Positions 26,231-57,099 of a stretch of 64,000 bases of DNA are shown one piece after another; the stretch's first letter is position 1; every line of letters starts with the position of its first letter. The translations under genes were made by a program, and so were the position numbers. The notes beneath the pieces are model-generated. The model had not been told where the DNA came from. It did no database searches and saw only the letters and a list, made by a program, of their open reading frames with translations. Source of the stretch: a virus. Location: positions 15,740 to 79,739 of the IMG/VR virus record IMGVR_UViG_3300013101_000007; one strand, written 5' to 3'.

Positions 26231-26707
26231 ATGCCAGTAACCATAACAAAGAAAAAAATCGCTCCAAAAGGTAAATCTAAACTAAGTAAAAAAGCAACAA
26301 ACTCAAAAAAGATTGAAGCTATGAAAGACTTGGTTGATGTAATGGGTGTCACTCAGAAAGCAATGGAAAAACACCAAAAAGCAATGATGCCATTATCTGA
26401 AACTTATTCCAATGCTAAAGCAGAATTACTAACCATGGCTGATGAGGAATATGATGCCGCTCAAAAAGCACTAATATCCACAGATGATTATTTAGCCGAT
26501 ATTGGTATGAAGGGAAACAGAACCTCAATTACTGATAAGGCGAAAATTATTGATTTGCTGGATGGTATAGACGAGGACTTAGTAATCAAGTTAATCTCAT
26601 TTAAACTAACTGAATTAAAACAGTACTTGACCCCTACCGAAATAAAAGCAGTAACCGAGATAGAACGCTTAAATGCCAGAACGGTAAAAGTAAATCCTTT
26701 AACCTGA
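26231..26707 (+). CDS. Hypothetical protein (MPVTI-tagged)
   Basis: First gene after promoter cassette; Lys-rich N-terminus. Confidence 0.65.
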   Translation: MPVTITKKKIAPKGKSKLSKKATNSKKIEAMKDLVDVMGVTQKAMEKHQKAMMPLSETYSNAKAELLTMADEEYDAAQKALISTDDYLADIGMKGNRTSITDKAKIIDLLDGIDEDLVIKLISFKLTELKQYLTPTEIKAVTEIERLNARTVKVNPLT

Positions 26708-27687
26708 TGGATGAACAAAGAATTATCACCTTTCTAAAGGCGGTAGGTTCAGAACCATGTGAAATGCAGAATAGGGATGAATGGGTATTAGCACCTTGTC
26801 CATTTGCCCCTTGGTTTCACGAAGGGGGTGTAGACAATCATCCTTCATTTGGAGTTGAGAAGAAACCTAATGAGGAATCCAGATTTTATTGCTTCAGTTG
26901 TAATGCCAATGGCGATTTGATGGATATGATAATCAACCTGAAGCATGAAGGTGCTGTCATGGATGATGGTTATAACTTTCCTTTGGCTTTAACATTGATT
27001 GCAGAAGAGCAAGAAGAGGCAGAATTAGATATACCTGATTATGGTGAGGGTGTGGTAAAGCCTAAAGTAATAACCCAGATATTTGCCGAACAATTTTTGG
27101 AGTCCTTTAAGAAAGCTAAGTTCTTCAAGGATGGATTGCAGTATTTAAAAAGCAGAGGCTTAAACCCGTTAGAGATACATGAGTTGGATTTTAGATTTGA
27201 TTCAAAACATAAGCGTGTGTGTATCCCTGTAAGAGATTTTAATGGTAAGTTGATGGGATTGCATGGTAGAAGTATTATAAAAGGCACTACACCCCCTTAC
27301 AATGCCTATAAGTATAACAATCATTGGAATAAGTTGCCGTGGCTTGGAGAAGAATGGATAGATTTTGAAATACCTGTTGTTTTATGTGAGTCGGTATTTG
27401 ATTTTATTCAGATACGAAAAGTATACAGAAATGTAATGTGCAGTTTATCTTGTGGCATGGGCAAGGCTAAAGTAGATCGGATTAGGGGGGCTTTAGATGT
27501 TGTTAGTTTATATGACTACGGGAAGGGGGGTGATATGGCAAGAAAGTCTTTGCATAAGTATTTAAAAAGTTCAACCATTGTCCACTTAATACCAACAAAA
27601 GAGCAAGACGACCCCGGAGCAATGACTGAAGTAGAAATATATAATTTATTAAAAGGGTATGTTGATTTCAATTTGGAGGGTATATGA
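26707..27687 (+). CDS. DNA primase (Zn finger + TOPRIM)
   Basis: CPF..H...CFSC Zn finger; YLKSRG; LCESVFD TOPRIM; DPG. Confidence 0.9.
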   Translation: MDEQRIITFLKAVGSEPCEMQNRDEWVLAPCPFAPWFHEGGVDNHPSFGVEKKPNEESRFYCFSCNANGDLMDMIINLKHEGAVMDDGYNFPLALTLIAEEQEEAELDIPDYGEGVVKPKVITQIFAEQFLESFKKAKFFKDGLQYLKSRGLNPLEIHELDFRFDSKHKRVCIPVRDFNGKLMGLHGRSIIKGTTPPYNAYKYNNHWNKLPWLGEEWIDFEIPVVLCESVFDFIQIRKVYRNVMCSLSCGMGKAKVDRIRGALDVVSLYDYGKGGDMARKSLHKYLKSSTIVHLIPTKEQDDPGAMTEVEIYNLLKGYVDFNLEGI

Positions 27688-27911
27688 CTACTATTTCAAG
27701 CGAACTTAATATAACTAAAGGAGTAAGATTAAACCGGCTAATTTGGTTTATTTCACAAATTGAGCCAGAACAATTAATAACTTTAACTTTAGATGGAGGA
27801 ACTGCAACAGACCTTGCAGGACATTTAATTGTCAACCTTTGTACTGAGCATGATATTTTTTCACCAAAATTGTACACCGGAATAAAGATACAACAACATA
27901 AAGTTAATTAA
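27684..27911 (+). CDS. Hypothetical protein
   Basis: ATGA overlap, GGAGG RBS. Confidence 0.55.
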   Translation: MTTISSELNITKGVRLNRLIWFISQIEPEQLITLTLDGGTATDLAGHLIVNLCTEHDIFSPKLYTGIKIQQHKVN

Positions 27912-27913
27912 TT

Positions 27914-27941
27914 TTGACAATTAAAAACATACCCGTATAAT
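27914..27941 (+). promoter_or_regulatory. Sigma70 promoter for SSB
   Basis: TTGACA-16bp-TATAAT. Confidence 0.8.
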
Positions 27942-28011
27942 AGTAGGCGTTCACATTAGTTTGAACTTATGATAATCAGATACCGAAAGGTACAATATTA
28001 GGAGAAATAAC

Positions 28012-28695
28012 ATGGGGTTTTTAAAGAAAGGTAAGGCTAGTCAAAAGCAAGTAGCTGCGGCTGAGAAAAAGGCAGAAGAACAAGCAGAAGGTTATATTCG
28101 TAGATTTTGGCTTCCAAACGATGCAGAAACTACAATTACTTTTTTGGATGGTAAGTTGTTGCCAGATGGCTTACTTGATAATACAACATTTCTTGAACAT
28201 CAATTAAATTTAAACGGCTCATGGCAGAATTGGTACGCTTGTACCAGTGAAGATGAACCTTGTCCAATATGCGAAGGTGGAGATACCCCTTCATTAGTTG
28301 GCGTGTTTACAATCATAGATCATTCTGAGTGGACTTCTAAAAAAGATGGTTCAAAACACAAAGATGAAAAACGACTCTTTGTAGCAAAAAGACATACCTT
28401 AAAACAATTGCAGAAGATTGCCACTAAGCGTAAAGGCTTAACTGGAATTACCTTTGATGTTTCTCGTATTGGGGAAAAGGCCGCTAGTGTTGGGGATATG
28501 TTCGACTTTGTACAGAAAAAACCACTATCCTTTTTTCAGAAGAAATATAAAGATGCTGAAGCCTATGATTACGAGGAAATTTTGACGTATAAAGATGCTC
28601 AAGAACTTCGTGAAGAAGGTTTTGGTTCACTGTCAGTAGGTAATGAGCCAGAGGTTGATGAAGATGAAGAAGGTGAATATGAGGATGACGTATAG
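28012..28695 (+). CDS. Single-stranded DNA-binding protein (gp32-like)
   Basis: H...C..CPIC Zn site, OB-like core, very acidic C-terminal tail. Confidence 0.75.
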   Translation: MGFLKKGKASQKQVAAAEKKAEEQAEGYIRRFWLPNDAETTITFLDGKLLPDGLLDNTTFLEHQLNLNGSWQNWYACTSEDEPCPICEGGDTPSLVGVFTIIDHSEWTSKKDGSKHKDEKRLFVAKRHTLKQLQKIATKRKGLTGITFDVSRIGEKAASVGDMFDFVQKKPLSFFQKKYKDAEAYDYEEILTYKDAQELREEGFGSLSVGNEPEVDEDEEGEYEDDV

Positions 28696-28791
28696 CCTTT
28701 AAGGGTTTTGGTAGCGTCCGTTGGGCATTTGCTCATCACACTAATTGCGGGTGTTCATTGGTTGCTACCATTTTTATGGAGAATAAAATAA

Positions 28792-30135
28792 ATGACTTGG
28801 ACTAATCAAGTTCCATTGATAACAAAAGAAGCGGCTGTTTACCCTTATTCAGCAAAATTAAAAAAACGATTCAGTTTAGCCAGTAGGTATGATGACCCTA
28901 TAAATCTTTACAGAGAGATAGGCAAAGACAAACAACACAGAATTTTACTACCTAGACAAGTATGCCCTATGGGTGTGGATAAACGAGCGGTAGGTATTCC
29001 TGTAAAATTCGATACTATATTTAAACCCAGAAGTGATGAACAAGCCAGAGTTGTAAATGAAGCCTCTACTTTATTGTTGGCGGGTGAATCATTTGTAGTA
29101 AGAGCCCCTACTGGATTTGGTAAAACAATTTGTGCTATGCAGATGATTCATAATGTAGGTAGAAAAACATTAGTTATTGTCACTAAAGAGGACATAAGAG
29201 ACCAATGGATTGACGCGGCTAAAATGATACTAAAAATAAAGAACTCTGAAATAGGTATTATTCAAGGAGACCAATGCAATACCAAAGGAAAAAAGTTCTG
29301 TATTGGTATGATTCAATCCTTATCTAAGTCTGGGAAATACGCTCCTAGTACATGGACAGATTTTGGTTTAGTTATCTGGGATGAAGTACATAGAGTAGCG
29401 GCTGACCACTTCAGCAATAGTGCATGGCTATTACCGGCAAAATTAAGGTTAGGCCTTTCTGCAACACCTGAACGCAAAGACGGTAAAGATGTGGTTATTG
29501 CGGCTCATATAGGCAACGTAAGGGTGGCTACAGAGCAAATGACTATGATACCTAAAGTCTTGGTGGTTAAATCTAAATTCACCTTGCCTATGGTTCCTAG
29601 AAAGATAAATGGTAGATTTAAACAAGTACCTTTACCGCATACTCCGGGGCGTATTCAAGGTGTAAATAAGTGCCTGTCTAAAAATATGACCAGAAATAAG
29701 ATGATAGGCCAATTCATCAAGACCGCTTACAAGAAAGATAGAAATATAATTGTGTTCTCAGATTTAAAGGCTCACCTTGATAGACTTTATGAAATTTGTG
29801 TAATGAACGCGATACCTCAGAAGGATATGGCTTTTTATATTGGGGGTTTGACCAAACAAGAACGAGAACGGGCTAAAGTAAAAGCTATAATTTTTGCCAC
29901 GTATGCCATGACTTCAGAAGCAACTGATATACCGTGGATGGACACAGCGGTTTTATGTACTCCTCGCTCAGATGTGGTTCAGATTGTTGGGCGTATATTA
30001 CGGGAATACCCAGACAAAAAAGAACCTATAGTATTTGATGTTGTAGATCAGTGTAGCAATGTATTGACAGGCTATTACAATAACCGATTGCAATGGTACA
30101 AGTCCATAGGCGCGGAGGTTAGAAGGAAAAATTGA
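28792..30135 (+). CDS. Superfamily II helicase (UvsW/ResIII-like)
   Basis: APTGFGKT, DEVH, LSATPER, QIVGRILR. Confidence 0.92.
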   Translation: MTWTNQVPLITKEAAVYPYSAKLKKRFSLASRYDDPINLYREIGKDKQHRILLPRQVCPMGVDKRAVGIPVKFDTIFKPRSDEQARVVNEASTLLLAGESFVVRAPTGFGKTICAMQMIHNVGRKTLVIVTKEDIRDQWIDAAKMILKIKNSEIGIIQGDQCNTKGKKFCIGMIQSLSKSGKYAPSTWTDFGLVIWDEVHRVAADHFSNSAWLLPAKLRLGLSATPERKDGKDVVIAAHIGNVRVATEQMTMIPKVLVVKSKFTLPMVPRKINGRFKQVPLPHTPGRIQGVNKCLSKNMTRNKMIGQFIKTAYKKDRNIIVFSDLKAHLDRLYEICVMNAIPQKDMAFYIGGLTKQERERAKVKAIIFATYAMTSEATDIPWMDTAVLCTPRSDVVQIVGRILREYPDKKEPIVFDVVDQCSNVLTGYYNNRLQWYKSIGAEVRRKN

Positions 30136-30194: not shown

Positions 30195-30680
30195 ATGCCA
30201 GTCAAAGTAAAAAAAATCACGGATAAAAAACCCTTCAAGAAGTGGTACGATGATAATAAAAAAGACTTCAATGAACAGCGTAGGGATAGATACCGGACTG
30301 ACCCAGAGTACAGAAAACGTGTGCAAGAAAATAACGCTAAGAATTCAAATAGAAAAAAGAAAAATCTACCTACCATGGATGAGTATGAATCTGTGCCTCT
30401 TGAAATGGAGGGCGGTATTATTCTTGAATGTTACAGTATTAAAGATGCTTGTGAGATTATAGGTAGGGGGAAGCAAACTATACGCCTATGGACAAAAAAC
30501 AAAGATATACCAGATGTATCGGTTGTGGATGAAGAGGGCATAAAGTATTACACCGACACTCAAATAAATCTACTAATTGATTTTGCAGATATTAGAAGGG
30601 GTTTGAGTGGGGCTACCATAAATGCCAATGCAGATTTAGCAAAGGCTTCAAAAATAGTGTTCACTAATTGGGAGAAATAA
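30195..30680 (+). CDS. MerR/excisionase-type HTH DNA-binding protein
   Basis: YSIKDACEIIGRGKQTIRLW....IP.......YYTDTQI. Confidence 0.7.
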   Translation: MPVKVKKITDKKPFKKWYDDNKKDFNEQRRDRYRTDPEYRKRVQENNAKNSNRKKKNLPTMDEYESVPLEMEGGIILECYSIKDACEIIGRGKQTIRLWTKNKDIPDVSVVDEEGIKYYTDTQINLLIDFADIRRGLSGATINANADLAKASKIVFTNWEK

Positions 30681-31172
30681 ATGCCAGTAACTATAAAAAA
30701 GAAAGATGATAACAAACCAGAAAAGGCTAAAGAAAAACCAGAAGTCACCTCCAAAAAGAAATCGGTTAATAAGCCAAAAACGGCAAGTAAAAAAGACCAC
30801 CCAACAGCTAACATAGCTAAACAGTCAAAAGAAACAAAACTGGTTGTAGATGGGCATGAGGTTTCTGATGGCGAAGTAATTAATATGAAAGAACCCACAG
30901 GTCAGGTGAGTCTTGAGTACCCAGATGGAACTACAAAAAATATTCAGATTAAATTAGCCAATGCCTCAAATTATATCGGAGCTACAGTAAATGTAGGAAT
31001 CAGTTTAGGCTTAACTGTCAATATTGGCAACTACGAAAATGTTAAAGCTCAAGTCTCAATTCATATTCCATGCTCACATGAAGAAATTGAAGATACTTAT
31101 GAATTTGCGAAGGAGTGGGCTGATGATAAACTTGAAGAACTACAAGGCGAAATAGAAACCCATAAAGAATAA
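30681..31172 (+). CDS. Hypothetical protein (MPVTI-tagged)
   Basis: GLTVNIGNYENVK motif of a common phage family; Lys-rich N-terminus. Confidence 0.6.
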   Translation: MPVTIKKKDDNKPEKAKEKPEVTSKKKSVNKPKTASKKDHPTANIAKQSKETKLVVDGHEVSDGEVINMKEPTGQVSLEYPDGTTKNIQIKLANASNYIGATVNVGISLGLTVNIGNYENVKAQVSIHIPCSHEEIEDTYEFAKEWADDKLEELQGEIETHKE

Positions 31173-31201: not shown

Positions 31202-32239
31202 ATGAGTTCAATTACTGAACTAGCAGAGCAGATGGGTAAACAGTATGGTAAAGGTGTCGTCACAAATGGTGCAGATGTACCAGAATCATTAAGAGCCGAT
31301 ACTGGAATTTTTCCATTTGATTTAGCAACCGGTGGGGGTTTTCCTATTGGTAAGATAAGTATTTTATATGGGCCTGAATCTAGTCTGAAAACAACCATTG
31401 CACTTAAAGCCATTGCTAGGTATCAACTATCTAATCCTGATAAAAAATGTGTGTTTGTGGATGTTGAAGCCAGTTACTCACCTAATTGGGCAAAGAAACT
31501 AGGTGTTGATACAGAGGCCTTAACTATACTCAGACCAACATGCGCTGAACATGCCGTGGATGCAATAGAAGGGATATTGTACGCTGACGATTGTGGAATT
31601 GTTGTTGTAGATTCATTGGCTGCATTAATAACTGCTAATGAGTTGGACAGTAGTGCTGAGAAGGCCGTAGTGGGCGGTTCTGGATTAGTGATTGGCAAAC
31701 TGTACCGTAAGGCAGTAATGTCACTTAATGATGCCATACGTGAGGACAGATACCCTACATTGATTTGTATAAACCAGATACGGTTTAAAATTGGGGTTAT
31801 GTATGGAGACCCTGAGACTATGCCCGGAGGAAATGCTTTTAAATTTGCTTCAGCATTAACGGTTCGCCTTTACGGTAAAGATGAAATAGATACCAAAATA
31901 AATGCTACTCTACCTGCATGGAAAATATGTTCAGGTATTGTTAAGAAGTATAAAGTACCGATATATGCAAAATCTTTTGAATTTAAACTTTCCATTACAA
32001 AAGCAACCGGCTTTTCAGTCGGTGATGTGGATGATTGGAATACTTTTCTTTCTAAGATGAAGGATTTGCAGATAATAATGAAAGGTAAAAAGGTTGGAAC
32101 GTGGGTAATGCTTGATAAGGAGTACAAAACCCTCAAAGAGATAAGAAAAACCATTGATGATGATGATGGCCTTAATTTGGCATTAAGGGAATTGGTAGTA
32201 GAGGGATGCTTAGATGATGATGATGAGGATGAGGATTAA
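31202..32239 (+). CDS. recA: RecA/UvsX recombinase
   Basis: YGPESSLKTT, VVDSLAAL, INQIRFKIGVMYGDPETMPGGNAFKF. Confidence 0.95.
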   Translation: MSSITELAEQMGKQYGKGVVTNGADVPESLRADTGIFPFDLATGGGFPIGKISILYGPESSLKTTIALKAIARYQLSNPDKKCVFVDVEASYSPNWAKKLGVDTEALTILRPTCAEHAVDAIEGILYADDCGIVVVDSLAALITANELDSSAEKAVVGGSGLVIGKLYRKAVMSLNDAIREDRYPTLICINQIRFKIGVMYGDPETMPGGNAFKFASALTVRLYGKDEIDTKINATLPAWKICSGIVKKYKVPIYAKSFEFKLSITKATGFSVGDVDDWNTFLSKMKDLQIIMKGKKVGTWVMLDKEYKTLKEIRKTIDDDDGLNLALRELVVEGCLDDDDEDED

Positions 32240-32242
32240 ATT

Positions 32243-32434
32243 ATGAGTGATACAATAGAAATGAGCGTAACTATTGTACGGGAAACAGCAAAGGCTTTTT
32301 TGGTAGATGATGGGGATGAGTGGTGGATTCCAAAGTCTCAAATTACTGACCCTGAACAGTTTGATGCAGATGCAAATGATGTAGTAATAATCGAAATATC
32401 AGAATGGTGGGCAGATAAAGCAGGATTATTATAA
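32243..32434 (+). CDS. Small acidic protein
   Basis: ETAKAFLV..WIPKSQI pattern; GAGG RBS. Confidence 0.6.
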   Translation: MSDTIEMSVTIVRETAKAFLVDDGDEWWIPKSQITDPEQFDADANDVVIIEISEWWADKAGLL

Positions 32435-32796
32435 TGGGAGAAAACCCGTGGATAAGAAAGAACACTGGTAAGAAAAATAACCACGGGCGTAAAGCCGAAG
32501 TAAAAACCTCTAGGAGATTAAAAGGTAAGTTACATGCCGGTAGCGGTAATATGGGTGTAAAAGCAGATTTTACAGTAAAAGATTACAAGGTGGAAAATAA
32601 AGCCACTATACACAGGAGCATTAAGCTGGAATTGGATTGGCTGTTAAAGGTGTCACAAGAAGCCATTGAAGTAGGCAAGATACCAGCACTGTCTATTCAG
32701 TTTGTAAATAGCCAAGGTACGCCTTTAAATAAAGGGCGGTGGGTGATGATACCAGAGGATGAGTTTAAAGATTTAATTGAAAACAAACAGGAGTAA
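32434..32796 (+). CDS. Hjc-like PD-(D/E)xK Holliday junction resolvase
   Basis: G..AE...GSG..KAD.....VENK. Confidence 0.7.
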   Translation: MGENPWIRKNTGKKNNHGRKAEVKTSRRLKGKLHAGSGNMGVKADFTVKDYKVENKATIHRSIKLELDWLLKVSQEAIEVGKIPALSIQFVNSQGTPLNKGRWVMIPEDEFKDLIENKQE

Positions 32797-33059: not shown

Positions 33060-33394
33060 TGTTATCCAGAGAGGATTATTTATTACTGAAGTTATCGGAG
33101 GAATGTGCTGAAGTAATCAAAGAAGTTCATAAAGCGTTAGAGTTTGGATTGTACGATTTTGACCCAGACAAACCAAATACTAATAATAGAGAGAAAATAG
33201 TTCAAGAGTTTATTGAATGTCAAACCGTGTTTAATATGTTGGTGGATGAACAAGCATTGTTTTATCCGAATGAAGCTGAAGTAAGTATACGGATTGATGC
33301 TAAACAAAAGAAAGTAGAGAAATACATGGAGTACTCAAGAAACTGCGGTAAGTTAGAACAGGAAGGAATTACTGATTGGGGGGATGACACATAA
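33059..33394 (+). CDS. MazG-like NTP pyrophosphohydrolase
   Basis: LSEECAEVIKEVHKALEFG...E..E. Confidence 0.7.
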   Translation: MLSREDYLLLKLSEECAEVIKEVHKALEFGLYDFDPDKPNTNNREKIVQEFIECQTVFNMLVDEQALFYPNEAEVSIRIDAKQKKVEKYMEYSRNCGKLEQEGITDWGDDT

Positions 33395-34311
33395 TGCCTT
33401 TAAAAATAATAAAAAAATCTAAGCATCCTTTCAGTTTAAAAAAGGTATTACATGAAAAATTGGCTGGTATGGAGGTGGCAAGACCTATGCACAATATTCA
33501 TGCTTCAGAAGCAACTAATGAAGATAAAGAATTTTGTCCACGCGAATACTGTTTAATAGATATAACTAAAAAGAAGCGTAAAGATAAATTTATAGGCACT
33601 TCATTAAGGACAACCTTTGACCACGGCAATGATCTACAAAGACGATTAAACGAAGTATACCTAGCTGATATTATGGTAGGTGATTGGGTGTGTAGGAATT
33701 GTGGAGAGATAAAACAGTTATGCAAGAAACCACCTGAAAAACTACAGTGCTTTACTGATTCTGGGATAAAACATAATTGGGAGTACATAGAACCTAGACC
33801 TTTATCACAAATTTCTGGAATATCTGGCGGGATTGATGCCTTACTAAATACAGGTGAACCGAAGTATAGAATCTATGAAATTAAAACAATGGCTTCAGAT
33901 GCTTTTAAAGCCCTCTCAGCCCCTTTATCTGAGCATCGTATAAGGACTAACCTTTATATGCGTTTGGTTAATGAGGACAACACAGAGCTTCATGATAGAG
34001 TAAATAGTCACACGGCTAATATACTTTACGTGTGTAAGGGGTTTGGGTGCAAAGATGAATCATTAAAATTAATGGGAATAAAAGACGCGCCTTTTTCACC
34101 CTTTAAAGAATTTACAATACATAGGGATGATAGCACTACTACAATAGTTACTCGTAAAGCCAAACTAATAAAAAAATACCGTGCCGGTGGTAAGATGCCT
34201 GATGGAGTATGTGCAACCTCTTTTTGTAAACGTGCAAAAACATGCCCTGTTATCAGTGAATGTTTTAGTGGTAAATTTCCAGCCCAAACAACATGGAATA
34301 AAAAACTATAA
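33394..34311 (+). CDS. Cas4-like PD-(D/E)xK exonuclease
   Basis: N-terminal CPR, GGIDA..YEIKT, C-terminal Cys cluster (C....C.....CP...C). Confidence 0.75.
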   Translation: MPLKIIKKSKHPFSLKKVLHEKLAGMEVARPMHNIHASEATNEDKEFCPREYCLIDITKKKRKDKFIGTSLRTTFDHGNDLQRRLNEVYLADIMVGDWVCRNCGEIKQLCKKPPEKLQCFTDSGIKHNWEYIEPRPLSQISGISGGIDALLNTGEPKYRIYEIKTMASDAFKALSAPLSEHRIRTNLYMRLVNEDNTELHDRVNSHTANILYVCKGFGCKDESLKLMGIKDAPFSPFKEFTIHRDDSTTTIVTRKAKLIKKYRAGGKMPDGVCATSFCKRAKTCPVISECFSGKFPAQTTWNKKL

Positions 34312-42099: not shown

Positions 42100-43303
42100 C
42101 GGTAAAAATGTATTTGACACGGCCTTAGATAGAATAAGGCATTTATACGATGAGTTTGAGAATGTTATAGTAAGTTTTTCTGGAGGTAAAGATAGTACTA
42201 TCTGTTTACAGTTGGCTTTAATTGTTGCAGAAGAAAAAGGACGATTACCTGTTAGTGTGGTATTTATAGATCAAGAGGCTGAATGGACTTTTGTACAAAC
42301 ATACATGAAGAAGGTTATGTATGATGAAAGAATAAAGCCCTACTGGTTTCAGATGCCTATAAAAATAACCAATTCCACTTCAACTACAGACCCGTGGTTG
42401 TATTGTTGGAAAGAGGAGGATAAAGAGAACTGGTTGCATCAAAAAGACCCGATAAGTATAAAAAATAATGTGTACGGTACTGATAGATTTTCAGAATTAT
42501 TCAATGCCATTATAGGTGAGGAGTTTAAAGGGCAAAGAACAGCTAATCTGGGAGGTATAAGGGCAGAAGAAAGCCCCTCCAGAGCATTAGGTTTGACCGG
42601 TGCTATTACCTACAAAGATATAACTTGGGGGAAGGTATTAAGCAAGAAGTTACAACACTTCACTTTTTATCCAATATATGACTGGGGTTATCGGGATGTA
42701 TGGAAAGCGATTCTGGATAATAAATGGCAGTACTGTAAATTGTATGATTACATGTATCAATATGGTGTGAGTGTTCATAACATGAGAGTATCTAATCTAC
42801 ACCATGAGACCGCAATACAAAACCTATATATCCTACAAGAAATTGAACCTGAGTTATGGGGTAGGTTGACAAAGAGATTACAAGGTATTAACACCGCAGG
42901 GCAGTTAAAGTTTGGCAGTATAAAGCCGCCAAAAACATTACCTTTTATGTTTAAAGACTGGATGGAGTATCGGGATTATTTACTGGAGAAACTGGTATCA
43001 GATGAGGATATAAAAAAGAAATTTAAGCGTTACTTTGAATTACATGATGATAAATTTAAACCACCTAAGATAAGAGAACACTGGTTAAAAGCTAATATTG
43101 TAGCAATACTCATTAATGACCCAGATACTAAACTCACAATGTTTAAAGTTCGGGCTAATGTGCGTGAATATGTGGCTTACTTAAAAGGTATTAAACGGCC
43201 TAATAATGTAAACAATACTTATATACTAGACTTACTTGATTATGAATCTAAACAAAAAATTAAAAGACGTAATAAAAGCGGCCTCAAATTCAGCAAAAAA
43301 TAA
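42086..43303 (+). CDS. PAPS-reductase-family PP-loop protein (IbrA/YbdN, DUF3440-like)
   Basis: VSFSGGKDS, FIDQEAE, GIRAEES..R, YPIYDW...DVW, MRVS. Confidence 0.88.
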   Translation: MRIFSGKNVFDTALDRIRHLYDEFENVIVSFSGGKDSTICLQLALIVAEEKGRLPVSVVFIDQEAEWTFVQTYMKKVMYDERIKPYWFQMPIKITNSTSTTDPWLYCWKEEDKENWLHQKDPISIKNNVYGTDRFSELFNAIIGEEFKGQRTANLGGIRAEESPSRALGLTGAITYKDITWGKVLSKKLQHFTFYPIYDWGYRDVWKAILDNKWQYCKLYDYMYQYGVSVHNMRVSNLHHETAIQNLYILQEIEPELWGRLTKRLQGINTAGQLKFGSIKPPKTLPFMFKDWMEYRDYLLEKLVSDEDIKKKFKRYFELHDDKFKPPKIREHWLKANIVAILINDPDTKLTMFKVRANVREYVAYLKGIKRPNNVNNTYILDLLDYESKQKIKRRNKSGLKFSKK

Positions 43304-43961
43304 AGATGATTTTGTTTATGCCTTGAGGGAGTTTATCCATACTGAAATCTCAATAAGAAAGCACCAGCCGGTTGATTTAATCCGGTGGGTGGATATAGGT
43401 AAGGTAAAGCCAAACGATTACAACCCTAATAGCGTGGCTACGGTTGAATTGAAGCTATTGCATACATCCGTAAAGGCAGATGGTTATACGCAGCCTATAG
43501 TGACGATATACGATGAAGAGAACGATGAGTATATTATTGTTGATGGCTTTCATAGATACTTCACTATGTTGAATAATGCAGATATTACTGAAATGACCCT
43601 AGACAAGTTGCCGGTGGTGGTTATTAATTCTAAAATTAATGATCGTATGGCTTCAACTGTCAGGCATAATCGGGCAAGAGGTAAACACTCAATTAATGGA
43701 ATGTCTAACATGGTTTTTAATATGTTGGAGAATGGTTGGGAGGATGCCCAGATATGTAATGAGTTGGGTATGGAAGCCGAAGAGTTACTGAAGTTAAAAC
43801 ATATAACTGGCTTCTCAAAATTATTCGAGAATATTGATTATGCTAAAGCATGGGAAACGAAAAAACAACTTCAGTTAAAAAAGAAGTATCGGGATGAAAA
43901 CCCAGTGCAACCAATTGCAAAAAAGAAAGGCGTTACCATTGTTAGAAAGGGTAAGAAGTAA
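43242..43961 (+). CDS. ParB-like partner (IbrB/YbdM)
   Basis: PVD..WV....PNDYNPN.VA, DGYTQPIV, IVDGFHR, RMASTVRHNRARGKH. Confidence 0.88.
   Translation: MNLNKKLKDVIKAASNSAKNKDDFVYALREFIHTEISIRKHQPVDLIRWVDIGKVKPNDYNPNSVATVELKLLHTSVKADGYTQPIVTIYDEENDEYIIVDGFHRYFTMLNNADITEMTLDKLPVVVINSKINDRMASTVRHNRARGKHSINGMSNMVFNMLENGWEDAQICNELGMEAEELLKLKHITGFSKLFENIDYAKAWETKKQLQLKKKYRDENPVQPIAKKKGVTIVRKGKK
43906..43919. repeat. Dispersed palindrome, locus 12
   Basis: TGCAACCAATTGCA in IbrB-like CDS. Confidence 0.85.
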
Positions 43962-44763: not shown

Positions 44764-45372
44764 ATGCCTGTAACTATAGTACAAAAACCAAAGGCCAAAA
44801 AGAATAAACATAATGATTCTAGGATACCGTGGCCTGAGATAAAACAACAGTTTATTGAAACCAATTTGGAAGGGAGAATGACCCTGACCCAAGTAGCTGA
44901 AGCGAATAATATTGTTGTTGGTACTTTGGCTAATAAAGCTGCGGCTGATAGGTGGTATGATGAATTGCGGGAAAAGAAATTAGAAATAACCCGTGAAGTA
45001 GAAAAAGCAATGGCGGTTGATACCAAGAAAGTCATTACTCAATTAAAAGCCAAAAATCTTAATGATGAATTGGCAGTAAGGCAGAGGCATTTAGGGTTAT
45101 CAAGAAAGGCATTATTGATAGCTAAAGCCAGACTGGATACTTTAGATTCTAAAAAAATGACGGTACGGGAAACCTTAGACCTTCTTAAATTTGGAGTAGA
45201 GCAGGAACGTAGGGCATTAGGTATGGTAGATGAAACTACTTTAATATTACAGGATGCTCCTAACAGTAATGTTGAATTATCTTATGGTAAGGTTGATTCA
45301 GTTATTGGTACATTGATTGACTTAATGAAAGGGGATGATGGCGTATATGAAGAAGTCAAACAGGGAAATTAA
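44764..45372 (+). CDS. terS: Terminase small subunit
   Basis: N-terminal HTH (W..IKQQF....TLTQVAE....GTL...A....W), directly upstream of terL. Confidence 0.65.
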   Translation: MPVTIVQKPKAKKNKHNDSRIPWPEIKQQFIETNLEGRMTLTQVAEANNIVVGTLANKAAADRWYDELREKKLEITREVEKAMAVDTKKVITQLKAKNLNDELAVRQRHLGLSRKALLIAKARLDTLDSKKMTVRETLDLLKFGVEQERRALGMVDETTLILQDAPNSNVELSYGKVDSVIGTLIDLMKGDDGVYEEVKQGN

Positions 45373-47206
45373 AAGAGAAAGGATTAATCAAGTAATTGAT
45401 ACTCAGATACCGTCTTACCATAAAGAGTTTTTTATGGAGATATTACGTGCTAGACAGCACGGAGTAATATCTGCAATAGAGAAGAAGTACAAACGCTTAC
45501 CAGTACCAGCTAATATATTCATTAATGAGCAGACATTATTAGGGACTCCAAACACGTTGTATCCTGAGATAATGAAGTGCATGGTTGATCTGAACAACGG
45601 GACGTACACTGAAGCAGTATTAACCGGCTCAATAGGGTGTGGCAAGACGACTTTAGCCTTGTACACCACCGCATACCAGTTATATTTATTATCGTGCCTT
45701 AGAGACCCTCACAGAGAGTTTGGACTTGACCCTGCTTCAGAGATAATATTTATATTCCAGTCAATCAATGAGGCACTTGCAAAGCAGGTGGATTTTGCCA
45801 GATTTAAAGCAATGATTGAGAACAGTGAATACTTCACCAAGCATTTCATGTTTGATAGGAGTCTGGAATCTAAATTAAAATTCAATAACAGAATAGAAGT
45901 GATACCTGTATCTGGACAAGAGACAGCTGCCATAGGACAAAATGTAATTGGTGGGGTGATTGATGAGCTTAACTACATGGCGGTTATTGATAGGTCTAAG
46001 AGTAGTGTAGATGGCGGCACTTACGACCAAGCGATTGCCTTGTATAACTCATTGGCGCGTAGAAGAAAATCAAGATTTATGTCAAAGGGCGCATTGCCGG
46101 GAGTATTGTGTTTAGTATCCTCCAAACGATACCCAGGCCAATTCACAGATATTAAGATGGAAGAGGCTCGTAATGAGCTAGAACGTGAAGGTAAAACTAC
46201 TATTTATGTCTACGATAAAAAATCGTGGGATGTGATACCACCTGAAAGATTTGTAGGTACACGCTTCAAGGTATTCACGGGTGATGAATCAAAGAAAGCG
46301 TATATCATTACAACCAAGAAGGAACTAAAGAGGCATGAGGATGAACCAGAATTAGTATTGTCTGTGCCTACTGAGTATAGAACAGAATTTGAAACCGATA
46401 TGATGAACTCCTTGAGGGAGATTGCCGGTGTAAGTACATTAGCCAAACATCCATTTCTGGTTAATACTGAGAAGGTTGCAGAGGCATTTAATATTAACCA
46501 TGAGTCCATATTATCGAGGGAGTGTGTGGACTTCAAAGATACTCAGTTATTGATATACCCAGAACGGTTCAAGAACTTAAAAGAGCCACGGTGGGTACAT
46601 TTAGATTTAGCATTGACTGGTGATAGTGCCGGTATGAGTATGGGGTATGTAAAGGATTTCAAAGCCATTAAGCGTGGTGAGTTTGAAATGGAATTACTAC
46701 CGAATATAAACATGGATTTTACCCTAGAGATAGAACCACCTAAAGGGGATGAAATACAGTTCCATAAATTGCGATCATTAATTTATAAGCTGTCTGAGTA
46801 CGGGATTAAGATTAAATGGGTAAGTCTGGATAGTTATCAATCCTCAGATTTTCTACAGATACTACGAGTGAAGGGGTACAAGACCGGCTTAATATCCTTA
46901 GATAAAACCACCATGCCGTACAACATAACAAAGACTTGTATTTATGATGGCAGATTAACCACTCATCCCCATGCGAAACTAAAGCATGAATTATTATCAC
47001 TAGAGATCGACCAGAAGAAGGGCAAGATTGACCACCCAAGCACTTCCACTAAAGATGTATCTGATTCTTTAGGCGGTGTAGTTTACGGATTGACCACTAG
47101 AAAAGAGATATGGATTAGGCATAAAGTGCCATTAAGTAAAGTACCTCAGTCAGTTGTTGGGGCTTTAGAATCACAGGCTTCAGCAGATAATATAAAGGGT
47201 GCATGA
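45335..47206 (+). CDS. terL: Terminase large subunit
   Basis: Walker A TGSIGCGKT, Walker B GVIDE, nuclease HLDLALTGDSAG, LDSYQS, KIDHP...KDVSDS. Confidence 0.9.
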   Translation: MMAYMKKSNREIKRERINQVIDTQIPSYHKEFFMEILRARQHGVISAIEKKYKRLPVPANIFINEQTLLGTPNTLYPEIMKCMVDLNNGTYTEAVLTGSIGCGKTTLALYTTAYQLYLLSCLRDPHREFGLDPASEIIFIFQSINEALAKQVDFARFKAMIENSEYFTKHFMFDRSLESKLKFNNRIEVIPVSGQETAAIGQNVIGGVIDELNYMAVIDRSKSSVDGGTYDQAIALYNSLARRRKSRFMSKGALPGVLCLVSSKRYPGQFTDIKMEEARNELEREGKTTIYVYDKKSWDVIPPERFVGTRFKVFTGDESKKAYIITTKKELKRHEDEPELVLSVPTEYRTEFETDMMNSLREIAGVSTLAKHPFLVNTEKVAEAFNINHESILSRECVDFKDTQLLIYPERFKNLKEPRWVHLDLALTGDSAGMSMGYVKDFKAIKRGEFEMELLPNINMDFTLEIEPPKGDEIQFHKLRSLIYKLSEYGIKIKWVSLDSYQSSDFLQILRVKGYKTGLISLDKTTMPYNITKTCIYDGRLTTHPHAKLKHELLSLEIDQKKGKIDHPSTSTKDVSDSLGGVVYGLTTRKEIWIRHKVPLSKVPQSVVGALESQASADNIKGA

Positions 47207-48411: not shown

Positions 48412-48810
48412 ATGGGATGCTTTTCTTTTATGTGTAAAGAGTGTGGTGATGCTGTGTTGTCATCTAGTGAGCCTAATTCATCAAAAACAGATGAGGTTCA
48501 TTTATTCCTTCTTAAAGAGGGTACTGTTGTACAAACACTGGAAGGTCAATACGATTCATACGGTAGAGTATTTAAAGGCACTACAACGGACTCAGTACAC
48601 TGGGATATGCCTTGGTCTGATGTATGTGATTTGATGTTTGATAAGGATAAGGGTTCAGGTTTGGCGGCTGTACATAAACGGTGCTTTACTGGAAACGTGC
48701 CCACTACTCAATCAGATGATGACCCTAATCAGGGTTGGGGTGAAGATGATGCTGATGAATATGATTACTATGATTGTGAGGATGACGATTGTGAAGAGGA
48801 TGAATATTAA
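48412..48810 (+). CDS. Conserved phage protein (MG.FS...G.YDSYGRV) with acidic tail
   Basis: Motif and D/E-rich C-terminus. Confidence 0.6.
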   Translation: MGCFSFMCKECGDAVLSSSEPNSSKTDEVHLFLLKEGTVVQTLEGQYDSYGRVFKGTTTDSVHWDMPWSDVCDLMFDKDKGSGLAAVHKRCFTGNVPTTQSDDDPNQGWGEDDADEYDYYDCEDDDCEEDEY

Positions 48811-53330: not shown

Positions 53331-53332
53331 TA

Positions 53333-53949: not shown

Positions 53950-54523
53950 AGATGATATTCACTATCAATTAGTTAAAAGCGTGTATAAGTTACGTGTAGC
54001 CAAAAGAACAGGCAGACTCTACATAGATCATATCAATGAAGGTTTAATCGTCTTAGACGCGCTCTCAGCCACTACAATAAGTAAACAGGCGTTCTGTTTA
54101 CATCCACTATTGCAAAGTGATAAAGAATTGCACAGGATGCTTCAATATAATCCAGATTTATTACTAAATTGCAGTCCAGTGTCAATAATAATTGCAATGG
54201 AGTACCGACAACACTTAAACAGGTTTTCCTCACAAACTGTAATTAATGCCAGAAGGAAAATATTAATTAGTTCACTAAAAAAGGTGATGGAAGAAACCCC
54301 CTATTTACGACCAATGGCAATAGCAGATAAAGTTCAGAATAGAAAAGATTTTCTTGCTTTCCATAAAGGTACTCACCCACGGTCTAAAGAATTGGATTAC
54401 TATTTTCAAACATGGCTCTATGATATACTTGAGGTTGATGAGGATAAGTACCAGCGTTTAGCCGGTGCAATTGATTGCAATAAGGCTACCAGTGAAAAAG
54501 ATAATAGAGGAAATGGGTTATAA
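53936..54523 (+). CDS. HD-fold-like phage protein
   Basis: YIDHINEG...LHPLLQSD...IADKVQN pattern reminiscent of HD/RelA-hydrolase-like fold. Confidence 0.45.
   Translation: MIFSKDDIHYQLVKSVYKLRVAKRTGRLYIDHINEGLIVLDALSATTISKQAFCLHPLLQSDKELHRMLQYNPDLLLNCSPVSIIIAMEYRQHLNRFSSQTVINARRKILISSLKKVMEETPYLRPMAIADKVQNRKDFLAFHKGTHPRSKELDYYFQTWLYDILEVDEDKYQRLAGAIDCNKATSEKDNRGNGL
54466..54479. repeat. Dispersed palindrome, locus 15
   Basis: TGCAATTGATTGCA in CDS. Confidence 0.9.
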
Positions 54524-54689
54524 GGTTCTGGATAAAGACTATTTTTTATACGTGTATTTAGGTGAAAGGTTTATTACTTTATTAAGTAAGGATATTGGTT
54601 CATGTTACTGGCATAGCCCGACAGGGGAAACAATGACCCCGCTTAATGTTGGTAAAGCATTGATGGACTTAGGTAGGCGCAAAAAATAA
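54513..54689 (+). CDS. Hypothetical protein
   Basis: GAGG RBS before ATG 54513. Confidence 0.45.
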   Translation: MGYKVLDKDYFLYVYLGERFITLLSKDIGSCYWHSPTGETMTPLNVGKALMDLGRRKK

Positions 54690-54692
54690 GAT

Positions 54693-54720
54693 TTGACAAT
54701 AGAAATTATACGTGTATAAT
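54693..54720 (+). promoter_or_regulatory. Early promoter cassette
   Basis: TTGACA atagaaattatacgtg TATAAT. Confidence 0.85.
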
Positions 54721-54752
54721 TAAGCTCAACATCAACCAAACGGATTAAAATT

Positions 54753-55178
54753 ATGTCTGCTTTCATCATATCAAACAACCACGCCCTTTTAATTGCCATT
54801 GCTCACCTGTCTGATTATACCCACGGTGGAGACAACACCATATTAAAATACCCGCGACCATTTGAAGTTATCAAAGAGGCTAGGGCTTTACTTGCGGAAA
54901 ATATAAAATCAGTCAATCACAGATACCCAGATAATGAGAATTTTGAGGAAACTAAGGCTATATTATCTGGACTTAATATTGACGAAAAAGGAATTAAATT
55001 ATTAATCCATAGAAGGGCTGCAATAGATATAATCAAACAAATACATTGTTATACTTATCAATCGTGTGAGCATGATGGATGGGAAACGTCTTGGTCTTAT
55101 GCTACCTGCAAAGAAACCACAGATAAATTAATCCCTCATATCGCTGGGTATGAATCTGCTTCATGGGGTATAGAGTAA
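54753..55178 (+). CDS. Conserved mobile-element protein (MSAF...EN..SV..RY...CY.YQSCE)
   Basis: First gene after promoter cassette; motif. Confidence 0.65.
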   Translation: MSAFIISNNHALLIAIAHLSDYTHGGDNTILKYPRPFEVIKEARALLAENIKSVNHRYPDNENFEETKAILSGLNIDEKGIKLLIHRRAAIDIIKQIHCYTYQSCEHDGWETSWSYATCKETTDKLIPHIAGYESASWGIE

Positions 55179-55186
55179 AATAAGAT

Positions 55187-55214
55187 TTGACAATTAAAAT
55201 TATACGTGTATAAT
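55187..55214 (+). promoter_or_regulatory. Early promoter cassette
   Basis: TTGACA attaaaattatacgtg TATAAT. Confidence 0.85.
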
Positions 55215-55247
55215 GAAGCTCAACATTAACCAAACGGATTAAACCTT

Positions 55248-55391
55248 ATGACTACTTCACTTTCAGACTCTTTAAAAAACGCATGGACTGAGCTACATTT
55301 TAACTTAGAGCGTAATTCCTGCCAAGAAACCATTACACGTTTAGAAAATAGAATTTCCGAACTTCAACAAAAAATAAAACAAGGTGAGTAA
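55248..55391 (+). CDS. 47-aa coiled-coil protein (below ORF-track cutoff)
   Basis: ATG after leader motif; MTTSLSDSLKNAW...QKIKQGE. Confidence 0.55.
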   Translation: MTTSLSDSLKNAWTELHFNLERNSCQETITRLENRISELQQKIKQGE

Positions 55392-55392
55392 A

Positions 55393-55617
55393 ATGGTTAA
55401 TCAACTTGTAATTACACGCTCCATTGATGGTTATAATTTCCTTTCACCTGTATTCAATACATTGGAAGAAGCAGAAAATGATAAAACGGCAAAACACCAC
55501 CATATTCAGAAAACCCGTAAAGCCCATGGAGACCCCGCTGACGGTTGGATGATTTGGTCTGATGGTAATTTTGGCTGGTATGAAACTGAAGCAAGAAAGG
55601 TAAAATCTAATGCGTAA
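55393..55617 (+). CDS. Hypothetical protein
   Basis: ORF in operon. Confidence 0.5.
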   Translation: MVNQLVITRSIDGYNFLSPVFNTLEEAENDKTAKHHHIQKTRKAHGDPADGWMIWSDGNFGWYETEARKVKSNA

Positions 55618-55710
55618 ATTAAATGTTCAGAATGTAGAGTTAGCGGTATCGCTTATTATTTTTCTGGTTGTGGTTGTAATCCATAACCATGTAACAAACC
55701 TACCCCCACT

Positions 55711-55893
55711 ATGAGAGGCAACGATAATGATTTGGTGGATGCCTTGAGAGTATTAGATCAAGTATTTCAAAACACCGAGAAACAAACAAAAACCCTAGTC
55801 AGAGCATTACAACAATTAGCTGATATACCAGATATGCAGATACCTAAAGTAAAGGCTGAACAGCCTTGGTACAGGATGAATCAGAAATGGTAA
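55711..55893 (+). CDS. Hypothetical protein
   Basis: Small ORF. Confidence 0.4.
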   Translation: MRGNDNDLVDALRVLDQVFQNTEKQTKTLVRALQQLADIPDMQIPKVKAEQPWYRMNQKW

Positions 55894-56135
55894 TTGAAGA
55901 AGGTAAACATTACAAAACAAAAAACGGCTTTCCTGTATTAATTCATAACTATCAGGGCAAAGGAACCTTCAGTATTAAGGGTTCTATTTACAAGAAGCAC
56001 CGAGGTAGGCACAATAACCCACGCTATGAGATATGGCAACCCAATGGAATGAACAGGGCTATAGAGGCGTGTGAGTGGGACTTAGTGGAGATATGCACCG
56101 CTGAGATAAACGATCTTTTTGAACGGAGGAAATAA
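55887..56135 (+). CDS. Hypothetical protein
   Basis: GKHYKTKNG...W..NG.....DLV pattern. Confidence 0.55.
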   Translation: MVIEEGKHYKTKNGFPVLIHNYQGKGTFSIKGSIYKKHRGRHNNPRYEIWQPNGMNRAIEACEWDLVEICTAEINDLFERRK

Positions 56136-56428
56136 TGGATACTACGGACTTTGAAGAAAGAATGTCTAAGGATTCAGAGAGTAAACACTATGATTGTGTT
56201 TATGCAAGACCCTTGTTTATTCACTACTTCATGGAAGAAAAGAAAAAACATTTACCTGAAGGGGTGGAACTAATACCTTGGACTACAAACCGGTCTTTAT
56301 CTGTATTTCAATATAATAAATTTATTATAACCATAACTTATGAGTGCATTGAGGACGGTGGTGGTTCAGATGAATTAGATAGAGTATTAAACGAATTACA
56401 ACAACAGAGTAAAAAAAATGATAATTAA
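56135..56428 (+). CDS. Hypothetical protein
   Basis: GGAGG RBS, coupled. Confidence 0.5.
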   Translation: MDTTDFEERMSKDSESKHYDCVYARPLFIHYFMEEKKKHLPEGVELIPWTTNRSLSVFQYNKFIITITYECIEDGGGSDELDRVLNELQQQSKKNDN

Positions 56429-56720
56429 GATAAACACTGAAAATAAAAGTGAGATAGAAGAGGCACTTATTGTTCTGAATATGTTGATTTCAAAAATTCC
56501 AGAAGCACGTAAGGATAACCCTTTCTTAAAACAATCTATAGAAACCTTACAGCTACCAACAATGGTATTAAACGCTTTACTAACTGAAGGGATAAGGAGT
56601 ATTGACTTGCTTACTAGATATACCGAAACAGAATTATTCCATCTACCTAATATGGGAAAAAAGGGCATTGCTGAGATTAAGTCGGTGTTAGACAATAATA
56701 ACTTACAATTAGGGAGGTGA
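56418..56720 (+). CDS. RNA polymerase alpha-subunit C-terminal-domain-like protein
   Basis: SIETLQL...LNAL..EGI.SI..L...TETEL..LPNMGKKGIAEIK.VL....L.LG aligns with alpha-CTD. Confidence 0.8.
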   Translation: MIIKINTENKSEIEEALIVLNMLISKIPEARKDNPFLKQSIETLQLPTMVLNALLTEGIRSIDLLTRYTETELFHLPNMGKKGIAEIKSVLDNNNLQLGR

Positions 56721-56721
56721 T

Positions 56722-57099
56722 ATGCCGGTTACTATAGTAAGAAAAAAGAAGGTGGTTGATACCAGCCCAAAACTATCAGGCAGATTGGCAACCTTATACC
56801 CTAACTGGAAACCTACAGTAAAGGAGTATATTCTACGTCTAAGGCGCAATATGCTGGTACATTCACATTTGTATTACCGACTAGACAATCAGCTTGTACC
56901 AGATGATTTGTGGCAACGCTGGGCAGATGAACTTGCAGAAGTACAAAAGGATTATGGCACTGACTGGGATTACTACGATGAGTTTTTTGCAGACTGGGAT
57001 GGCTCAACAGGTTATCATCTACCTTCAGATAAGTGGGTGGTGTATAAAGCTGCATTCCTAATGAATATTTGTGGAGAAGGAAAATGCAATACCGCGTAA
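56722..57099 (+). CDS. Stand-alone NAD-dependent ligase domain Ia-like protein
   Basis: RLRR..LVHS.LYY.LDN.LVPD..W.....EL matches LigA Ia H...YY..D.P...D..YD..L..EL. Confidence 0.65.
   Translation: MPVTIVRKKKVVDTSPKLSGRLATLYPNWKPTVKEYILRLRRNMLVHSHLYYRLDNQLVPDDLWQRWADELAEVQKDYGTDWDYYDEFFADWDGSTGYHLPSDKWVVYKAAFLMNICGEGKCNTA

Follow-up and report, generated by a model that had tools for sequence, protein, structure and literature searches.

A transferable terminal peptide on DNA-acting proteins in a phage clade and a phage-encoded AAA ATPase as its candidate reader

Background

Terminal peptides address many proteins to one machine in several settings, such as degrons, the tails of single-stranded DNA-binding proteins (SSBs), PIP boxes and capsid-targeting sequences. 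Here we report on a terminal peptide, Pro-Val-Thr-Ile followed by lysines (hereafter the tag), which is carried by eight otherwise unrelated proteins, seven at the N-terminus and one, a ParB-like protein, at the C-terminus, in the phage genome represented by the IMG/VR record IMGVR_UViG_3300013101_000007 (referred to as G000). The window, i.e. the whole stretch analysed, is the right-hand 64 kb (positions 15,740 to 79,739) of this 79.7-kb genome; its GC content is 37% and nearly all genes are on the + strand.

Among the closest described systems are the AAA+ degrons (ssrA, the lambda O N-terminus and the MuA C-terminus), where one motor acts on many unrelated clients via either protein end, with lambda O as the classical client. 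The SspB XB/ClpX N-domain pair, ssrA, lambda O and MuA also likewise present a terminal aliphatic and basic peptide on a long disordered linker. The tag is, however, neither an XB (LRVVK) nor an ssrA motif and, unlike ClpX, the candidate motor discussed below is a phage protein of the classic AAA clade, known from its sequence, with no ClpX zinc domain and no known peptidase partner. In the Vps4 MIT/MIM system a classic-clade AAA reads a common short terminal motif on several ESCRT-III polymer subunits that it disassembles. These MIMs are C-terminal helices or Pro-rich strands on paralogues, whereas the tag carriers belong to unrelated families and the N-part of the phage AAA is not MIT-like. 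In general, AAA unfoldases and tethering peptides need a terminal tag combined with an unstructured stretch (ssrA/ClpX, the SspB XB tail, Vps4 MIT-MIM).

Short terminal peptides also organise replication and recombination proteins around an SSB, e.g. the SSB tip (D-D-D-I-P-F), the acidic tails of T7 gp2.5 and gp4, and the N-terminal basic 'B' peptide of T4 gp32. Compared to the SSB tip the polarity is reversed here, since the clients and not the hub bear the peptide, and the tag is basic and N-terminal. The T4 capsid-targeting sequence is likewise an N-terminal peptide common to unrelated phage proteins, but the carriers of the tag are replication, recombination and terminase proteins and there is no protease-site signature. 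Finally, the adenovirus 'molecular sled' pVIc (GVQSLKRRRCF) is a terminal peptide of eleven residues, strand-forming in its first part and basic in the next, which keeps or moves proteins on viral DNA (PMC4740752, PMC4797294); unlike the tag, it is cleaved, separate and docks on one cargo, and sliding needs only its basic core, while the non-basic part is the best conserved part of the tag.

Results

Frequency of the tag at gene starts

A preliminary description of this DNA had listed six N-terminal tags in the window and a C-terminal copy on the ParB-like protein. All six read as reported, the C-terminal copy was confirmed at 43929-43958, and a seventh N-terminal copy is present on the portal protein, the gene of which lies outside the window. 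PVTI is found at residues 2-5 in 5 of 132 + strand genes where 0.011 are expected from the phage's own N-terminal column frequencies (P = 1.4e-12), and a stricter motif including a basic pair is approximately 1000-fold commoner at gene starts than inside proteins (P = 3.7e-14). The notion, raised in the preliminary description, that A-rich initiation regions alone would yield the motif this often is refuted by these numbers, and the two null models rule out both chance and an A-rich start context. Moreover, K/R account for 54% of residues 6-10 in tagged proteins vs 14% elsewhere. Paralogous N-terminal regions were ruled out since the likeness stops after approximately 8-10 residues.

No upstream in-frame start was detected at any of the six reported gene starts. 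A clear purine-rich GGAG-type Shine-Dalgarno motif is located 5-10 nt upstream at 30195, 30681, 33394 and 56722; it is weaker at 26231 and 44764, and a crude Shine-Dalgarno score was zero at 44764 and at some orthologues in the relative G001 (see below).

Tagged proteins of the phage

The carriers were described as mostly DNA-acting, which is borne out by the Pfam and PHROG assignments, and the domain calls (MerR-type helix-turn-helix (HTH), Cas4-like exonuclease, Nlig-Ia, ParB-like and AAA) hold. The first tagged gene (26231..26707, +) is positioned between the genes for the DnaB-like helicase and the primase and encodes a 158-residue protein in which MPVTITKKK (codons 1-9, 26231-26257) is followed by a Lys-rich linker. 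Its orthologue in G001 retains MPVTINKKK, and homologues in the phages PJ32 and 1.215.A and in IMG/VR loci begin MAVKIAK.., MAVTIIKK.. and MTITVTKPK... For this protein (26231-26707) ESM-Atlas gave DUF7173 and Mu Gam-like (Ku-like, DNA-end-binding) clusters as leads only (score 0.91-0.92, TM ~0.5).

The MerR-type HTH regulator (30195..30680, +; Pfam MerR_1, phrog_19880) starts MPVKVKKIT, with the tag MPVKVKK at 30195-30215, and has the tag and some eight more residues in front of its conserved FKKWYDDNK core. Only G000 and G001 have the tag on this protein; more than 20 orthologues in other phages begin straight at the WY(D/E)xNK core. The adjacent gene (30681..31172, +) encodes a 163-residue protein of the phrog_25619 family that starts MPVTIKKKD (tag MPVTIKKK, 30681-30704) and consists of the tag, a disordered linker of approximately 60 residues and a conserved C-terminal domain. 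In the AlphaFold2 model residues 1-70 lack secondary structure (pLDDT 47-61) and are followed by four strands and a helix; a fold search with the C-terminal domain against the PDB gave no match. The PD-(D/E)XK (Cas4-like) exonuclease (33394..34311, +; phrog_2506, E = 6e-43) starts MPLKIIKKS (tag MPLKIIKK, 33394-33417), and its orthologues start MPLKITKK in G001, MAIKLLKALKK and MAITFLKK in the IMG/VR loci L036 and L038, respectively, and MAIKVGNFF/MGLKVGNFF in PJ32 and 1.215.A.

The ParB-like protein (43242-43961, +; phrog_2159) ends with KKKGVTIVRKGKK, in which the tag copy GVTIVRKGKK corresponds to positions 43929..43958. Among nine genomes scanned for C-terminal copies only the ParB orthologue pair of G000 and G001 was above chance. 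The next carrier (44764..45372, +) starts MPVTIVQKPK (tag MPVTIVQK, 44764-44787) and was called terS, i.e. the small terminase subunit. We keep this call as putative; it rests on the position directly upstream of, and overlapping, terL (45335-47206) and on an ESM-Atlas lead in which the nearest clusters are named terminase small subunit and Terminase_5. Pfam and PHROG gave no match for it, and used as query it retrieved no IMG/VR relatives. Its orthologue in G001 begins MPIKIIKK although the overall identity is just 50%.

The last tagged gene in the window (56722..57099, +) encodes a stand-alone Nlig-Ia protein, resembling domain Ia of NAD-dependent ligases (PF22745, E = 1.7e-23), with the tag MPVTIVRKKK at 56722-56751; the G001 orthologue begins MPVIIKRRKK. 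Nlig-Ia is the domain of NAD-dependent DNA ligase that binds nicotinamide mononucleotide (NMN), here encoded without the remaining ligase, and it may modulate host LigA or bind NAD/NMN. The portal gene (phrog_12, E = 1.3e-19), with the tag MPVTIKQKS, is located at genome position 2464, 13 kb upstream of the window. Immediately before its start codon (genome ~2445-2463) both G000 and G001 have CAATTGCAATG, which contains ATTGCA.

Selection on the protein sequence

Within G000 the tag codons vary (CCA/CCT/CCG, GTA/GTT/GTC, ACC/ACT/ACG and ATA/ATC) roughly according to the genome codon usage. For comparison we used G001, a complete 89.8-kb relative with a terL that is 84% identical; each of the seven orthologues in G001, as well as the C-terminus of its ParB, still carries the tag. 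Specifically, for codons 2-5 (28 comparisons) 13 are identical, 10 are synonymous and five encode conservative replacements within the motif (T/K, V/I, T/I), and for residues 2-8 the identity is 36/49 (73%). In the linkers (residues 9-30) only 7-8 of 22 residues (~35%) are identical in the 158-residue protein, the 163-residue protein and terS, and the identity climbs again in the folded domains. The ParB C-terminal copy reads GVTIKRKGKKV in G001; the two phages do not share a single codon of GVTI(V/K)RKGKK, and divergence is also seen in the linker before it. Across the 163-residue family (40-sequence alignment) the linker is rich in Lys, Pro, Ala and Glu and variable in length. Upstream of the ATG the tagged genes have nothing in common beyond a purine-rich motif of the Shine-Dalgarno type.

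The motif is therefore kept amid diverging flanks, its codons drift synonymously and it is located in disordered regions, as is typical for short linear motifs, and we conclude that the tag is a short linear motif under purifying selection on the protein. This agrees with the earlier suggestion, based on synonymous codons, of selection on the protein rather than a DNA repeat. A DNA repeat and an RNA operator were ruled out by the synonymous drift and by the lack of a common upstream sequence.

Variants of the tag in other phages

The recognisable GenBank relatives of G000 are only the ~80-kb Vibrio siphophages PJ32, VH2_2019, 1.215.A, Ares1 and SIO-2. The exact Pro-type pattern is absent from the distant Vibrio phages, and Ala/Gly variants are common there, giving the general outline M-[A/G/P/S/T]-[V/I/L]-x-[I/V/L/F]-x-K-K plus a disordered linker. 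PJ32 has MAVKIAKSIAKK, MAVKITKIKK and MAVKLTTKPKK, and VH2_2019 has MAIKIVKKEK, MALTITKNPR, MALSIVVPKRKK, MAIVIKTKK and MALVIKRKAP. In SIO-2 the tags MGVNIGVKK, MGLNISLGG and MAINIGKPK are present at ATG starts annotated in GenBank, and the 138-residue homologue of the 163-residue protein begins (V)GVQIKLKSKK with GTG as annotated start, hence M in vivo. Stenotrophomonas phage DLP_5 carries MGVKMG and MGVKLPG. Such Ala/Gly-type tags in cultured Vibrio phages, DLP_5 and many IMG/VR phages rule out that the tag is private to G000. This goes beyond the preliminary description in that Pro-2 is only a local flavour, replaced by Ala or Gly in other phages, where an SSB-like protein, helicase, recombinase and resolvase are the core carriers. 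Literature searches, of incomplete coverage, gave nothing usable on a phage tag of this kind, on Ycf46-like phage ATPases or on the SIO-2 virion proteome; neither the motif nor its clade or set of clients appears to have been described.

A word-indexed search with the 163-residue protein gave only four matches, and the family count is based on an exhaustive HMMER search, which identified 1014 relatives. The pattern M-[PAGST]-[VILM]-x-[IVFLM] opens 82 (57%) of 143 representatives taken without selection, and in 79 of the 82 a basic residue follows within three positions. Following the tag is a linker highly variable in length and composition and a conserved C-terminal domain of approximately 65 residues. 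Over GC contents of 0.36-0.63 positions 3 and 5 remain aliphatic and position 2 small. Members of the family, irrespective of the tag, are also present in Pseudomonas, Rhizobium and Rhodobacter phages.

Carriers across the clade

Using the 163-residue tagged family we found 36 IMG/VR loci (L-numbers) that have a common replication-recombination module with the order DnaB-like helicase, primase, SSB-like protein (phrog_17226), SF2 helicase (phrog_16), HTH regulator, 163-residue family, UvsX/Sak4-like recombinase, small resolvase-like protein, PD-(D/E)XK exonuclease and RuvC. Within one sub-clade the tag is on shifting subsets of these proteins. The 158-residue family is tagged in nearly every case in the tag-positive sub-clade, with the 163-residue family likewise a carrier, and the SSB-like protein is tagged in at least seven phages (e.g. 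MAIKIVKKEK, MAVKLTKKD, MAISLGKKK). DnaB is tagged in PJ32 and 1.215.A, the recombinase in L038, L040 and DLP_5, the exonuclease in L036, L038, G000 and G001, and RuvC in L040 and L041, while the primase, the SF2 helicase and the AAA ATPase are never tagged in the loci examined. Whole-genome scans revealed 5-10 tagged proteins per genome, some of them outside the module.

The check for untagged homologues, proposed in the preliminary description, showed that most relatives have the HTH, portal, RuvC and DnaB cores without a tag, and few have them with one. The tag together with a short linker has been added before cores that are untagged in other phages: the RuvC motif AVDPSTK follows MAITIKQKPKGEVVTL, and MPVKVKKITDKKP stands before the FKKWYDDNK core of the HTH family. 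The lineage of G000 and G001 has gained the portal and HTH tags. In the distant Vibrio phages no Nlig-Ia homologue and no terS orthologue was detectable, and the history of these two tags can therefore not be judged. Since the tag stands before cores that lack it elsewhere, it behaves as a portable module, appended lineage by lineage to conserved cores.

Module proteins generally have a basic N-terminus (~3 K/R in residues 2-13), whether their clade is tag-positive or tag-negative, whereas only one clade has the small-aliphatic-x-aliphatic element. The arm of basic residues is therefore probably the old part, which may do no more than hold the proteins on DNA; the strand-like element is an addition under a constraint of its own and is what calls for a specific reader.

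A phage-encoded AAA ATPase

At the head of the replication module is the gene (21199..22449, +) for a classic-clade AAA ATPase of 416 residues (PF00004, E = 4.7e-24), with Walker A (GIPGGGKT), pore loop (KYVGES), Walker B (LLFDEIEK) and a second region of homology (TTNN..YRSGRID) with Arg fingers. Its nearest sequences in the PDB are NVL, Cdc48/VCP, AFG2, NSF and Rix7, and in a monomer model residues 1-165 form an AAA-like alpha/beta and helical N-part. Of the tag-positive genomes that are complete or from cultured phages, 11 of 11 encode it (G000, G001, PJ32, VH2_2019, 1.215.A, SIO-2, G003, G007, G009, G026 and G038). Among the IMG/VR loci, 56 that have the AAA with its N-part show 29 strict tags in 1231 genes, and 22 with a generic AAA core only show none in 460; looser tag variants are present in most loci scoring zero strict tags.

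As weak leads, a sister clade (L049, L054, L055, L057 and L060) with a different AAA of ~550 residues has a different, Arg-rich common N-terminus, and in the clade lacking an AAA no common N-terminus was seen on the module proteins. The sister-clade pattern, MA-x-R-R-x-R-[S/T], is on the 163-residue family, the recombinase and the SSB-like protein and may be a second flavour.

Two observations concern the AAA gene itself: an HNH endonuclease gene (window 20571-21224; phrog_953, E = 1e-64) overlaps its start, and one 96,542-base IMG/VR record (L100 and L127) has two AAA ATPase copies with the same N-part approximately 53 kb apart.

Discussion

The earlier suggestion of a short docking or targeting motif is supported in kind, in that the tag is kept at the protein level and is portable; capsid loading, one of the roles then proposed, is disfavoured by the carriers and by the lack of a protease-site pattern. 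We infer that a protein reads the tag, that this reader is the AAA ATPase, and the events that would follow binding. The aliphatic residues 3 and 5 and the small residue 2 would, judged from their conservation, point to a strand that docks in a hydrophobic groove more than to a role of charge alone. Three flavours (P-V-T-I, A-V-K-I and G-V/L-N-I) are present in phages that infect Vibrio or, in the case of G000, have Vibrio phages as their only recognisable relatives, and this diversity argues weakly for a phage-encoded rather than a host reader. The AAA at 21199, named as a candidate in the preliminary description, is the best single one, with an intact pore loop and a presence in all complete tagged genomes. 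We tentatively consider the tag as a docking or engagement tag for this Cdc48/VCP-like unfoldase of the phage itself, which is our leading candidate reader and a possible one, if short of probable.

In such a scheme, the tag would consist of a residue that is small and N-terminal after removal of Met, a short aliphatic-x-aliphatic element of the beta-strand type and a lysine cluster on a flexible disordered linker. Added to the proteins working on phage DNA (SSB-like protein, helicase, recombinase, exonuclease, resolvase, regulator, ParB, small terminase and portal), it would allow one phage-encoded reader to recognise all of them. The reader, a single-ring Cdc48/VCP-like AAA unfoldase, would bind the tag and engage its client via the unstructured linker, and might then remodel, recycle or remove DNA-bound oligomers at the switch between replication, recombination and packaging. 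That the clade runs a tag-and-unfoldase system of its own, where a transferable peptide marks replication, recombination, partition and packaging proteins for a phage-encoded Cdc48-like segregase, which would pull them off phage DNA or recycle them and so time the hand-over from replication to packaging, is a more speculative and somewhat unlikely extension. It would be a viral counterpart of chromatin extraction by Cdc48/p97 or of the remodelling of MuA by ClpX, with an address code of its own.

Several points weigh against the AAA as reader. The tag, the AAA and the closer version of the replication module are co-inherited, and their co-occurrence may reflect ancestry only; because the tag-positive phages are each other's closest relatives, the correlations of the tag with the AAA and with the SSB-like tails (see below) are both confounded. 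A peptide-binding N-domain is not recognisable in the AAA, the N-part of which resembles a degenerate AAA domain. On ParB the copy is at the opposite protein end with unchanged polarity, which fits docking in a groove and not simple end-first threading. Moreover, position 2 is A, G, P, S or T within a single genome (L041), and the lineage flavours may be drift instead of co-evolution with a reader. Finally, portal and small terminase are not obvious as clients of an unfoldase.

Alternatively, the tag might dock on a hub of the replisome or recombinosome, either the core of the SSB-like protein, similar to the N-terminal cooperativity peptide of T4 gp32, or the acidic C-terminal tails of the SSB-like protein, recombinase and helicase, similar to the T7 gp2.5 and gp4 tails that meet basic patches, and thereby recruit its carriers to SSB-coated DNA. 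The SSB-like protein (28012..28695, +; phrog_17226) has an acidic tail ending EGEYEDDV (10 of the last 15 residues are acidic), the recombinase ends DDDDEDED, and the helicase, recombinase, nucleases and resolvase among the clients match the classical SSB interactome, where portal, terS and HTH are unexpected. In tag-positive phages the SSB-like tails end [Y/F]-x-[D/E/N]-[D/E]-[L/V/M], and in tag-negative phages the SSB-like protein and DnaB end D-[V/I]-P-F, therefore the interaction code differs between the clades; this correlation has the phylogenetic confound noted above for the AAA, and by eye tag flavour and tail tip do not co-vary. The tagging of the SSB-like protein itself (see above) is expected for a self-association peptide and its family-wide N-terminal element S-W-M-K-K-G resembles the tag, but in G000 and G001 its N-terminus is MGFLKKGK and not the local tag. 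No solved sequence relative of the SSB-like protein was found. Considering also that two disordered peptides seldom form a specific complex, we regard a hub as rather unlikely. We rate just as low the idea that the tag needs no protein reader, its lysines binding DNA non-specifically so that the carriers slide or stay on it in the manner of pVIc. A peptide end with three to four basic residues in a row is sufficient to bind DNA and slide on it, mostly independent of sequence (PMC4797294, PMC4740752), and most tags have 3-4 K/R in residues 6-10, in line with the at least three clustered basic residues at a flexible end given for sleds (PMC4797294). All carriers act on DNA, either protein end would do (cf. 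the ParB copy), basic N-termini are general to the module proteins in both clades, and pVIc has the same outline as the tag (small, Val, polar, x, aliphatic, basic run). The best conserved parts of the tag, the small residue 2 and the aliphatic residues 3 and 5, are nevertheless not needed for sled activity. Tag-negative phages have basic arms without this element, which marks it as an addition with a constraint of its own, and of the first eight residues of the portal tag only two are lysines.

A degron or tether for a host AAA+ protease, which would give the carriers a short life unless assembled on DNA, we consider unlikely. The model would be the N-terminal ClpX signal of lambda O, a phage replication protein that is degraded via its N-terminus, or the XB tail of SspB (LRVVK), and both the terminal position and the disordered linker of the tag fit. 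The outline of the ClpX 'N-motif 1' (Flynn et al. 2003) is reportedly T/hydrophobic, hydrophobic, basic, hydrophobic; variants with Lys-4 (A-V-K-I, P-L-K-I) fit this outline, but those with Thr, Ser or Asn at position 4 (P-V-T-I, G-V-N-I) depart from it, as does the ParB end (..RKGKK). The ClpX N-domain recognises some substrates and adaptors (PMC5415555). Against a host protease, the motif was seen only in the phage clade with its own AAA (in a scan that left out other phages of these hosts and host proteomes), its flavour differs between phages of the same host genus, and structural or ring proteins such as the portal are unlikely targets of degradation. An effect on translation, through a favourable early-codon or nascent-peptide context, with A-rich and unstructured mRNA and Lys and Ile at codons 3-5, or through an mRNA operator for a RegA-like repressor, is very unlikely. 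Early codons affect yield, the motif follows exactly after the start codon in all but one case and lysine codons are A-rich; however, drift is free at third codon positions and the residues are nonetheless kept, the pattern is still present in phages of 62-63% GC (L040/G007), and upstream of the ATG nothing beyond the Shine-Dalgarno motif is common. In addition, the capsid and tail genes presumed to be the highest expressed (function by position only) lack the motif, a disordered linker accompanies it, and the conserved ParB copy is C-terminal. We regard as least probable, indeed highly improbable, that the tag loads proteins into the prohead in the way of T4 internal proteins. It is a short N-terminal peptide common to unrelated proteins, as is the T4 sequence, and the portal bears it, yet the portal tag is a late gain of G000 and G001 only and the core carriers (SSB-like protein, helicase, recombinase, resolvase and small terminase) are not expected inside heads; no conserved protease site follows the tag and there is no common residue pattern behind the lysines. 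With respect to binding of the beta-clamp (QL[SD]LF / QLxLxL), no tag contains a Q-L-x-L-F pattern.

The code is present in a large, partly cultured phage clade (Vibrio, Stenotrophomonas) and in many uncultured phages, where it sits on core enzymes of recombination-dependent replication and, in G000, also on portal, small terminase and ParB. Finding the reader would show how replication, recombination and packaging are organised or timed in these phages. A common AAA ATPase and two protein families (phrog_25619 and the 158-residue family), all orphans so far, would thereby be assigned a function, and a small tag would become available that can be transferred to other proteins to direct them to phage DNA or to a phage motor. 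As an annotation aid, the motif pinpoints true start codons and flags members of the module.

Finally, some minor observations relate to tails and short motifs in the module. The D-[V/I]-P-F tip, the classical C-terminal motif of bacterial SSBs, is on both the SSB-like protein and the DnaB-like helicase in L037, L039, L053 and L058 (and in L046, L050, L060 and L066), and the helicase of these tag-negative phages seems to imitate the tail of the SSB in the way that T7 gp4 imitates gp2.5. Apart from the SSB-like protein, acidic tails are present on the recombinase (window 31202-32239), which ends LDDDDEDED, and on a Cys-rich protein of 132 residues (48412-48810) with 10 acidic residues among the last 15. 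The gene following that for the recombinase encodes a protein of 120 residues (window 32434-32796; phrog_2002, annotated as Holliday junction resolvase) with N-P-[F/W/Y]-[L/M]-x-[R/K] at residues 3-9 and homologues in approximately 25 loci, and this sequence may represent a second short docking motif in the module.

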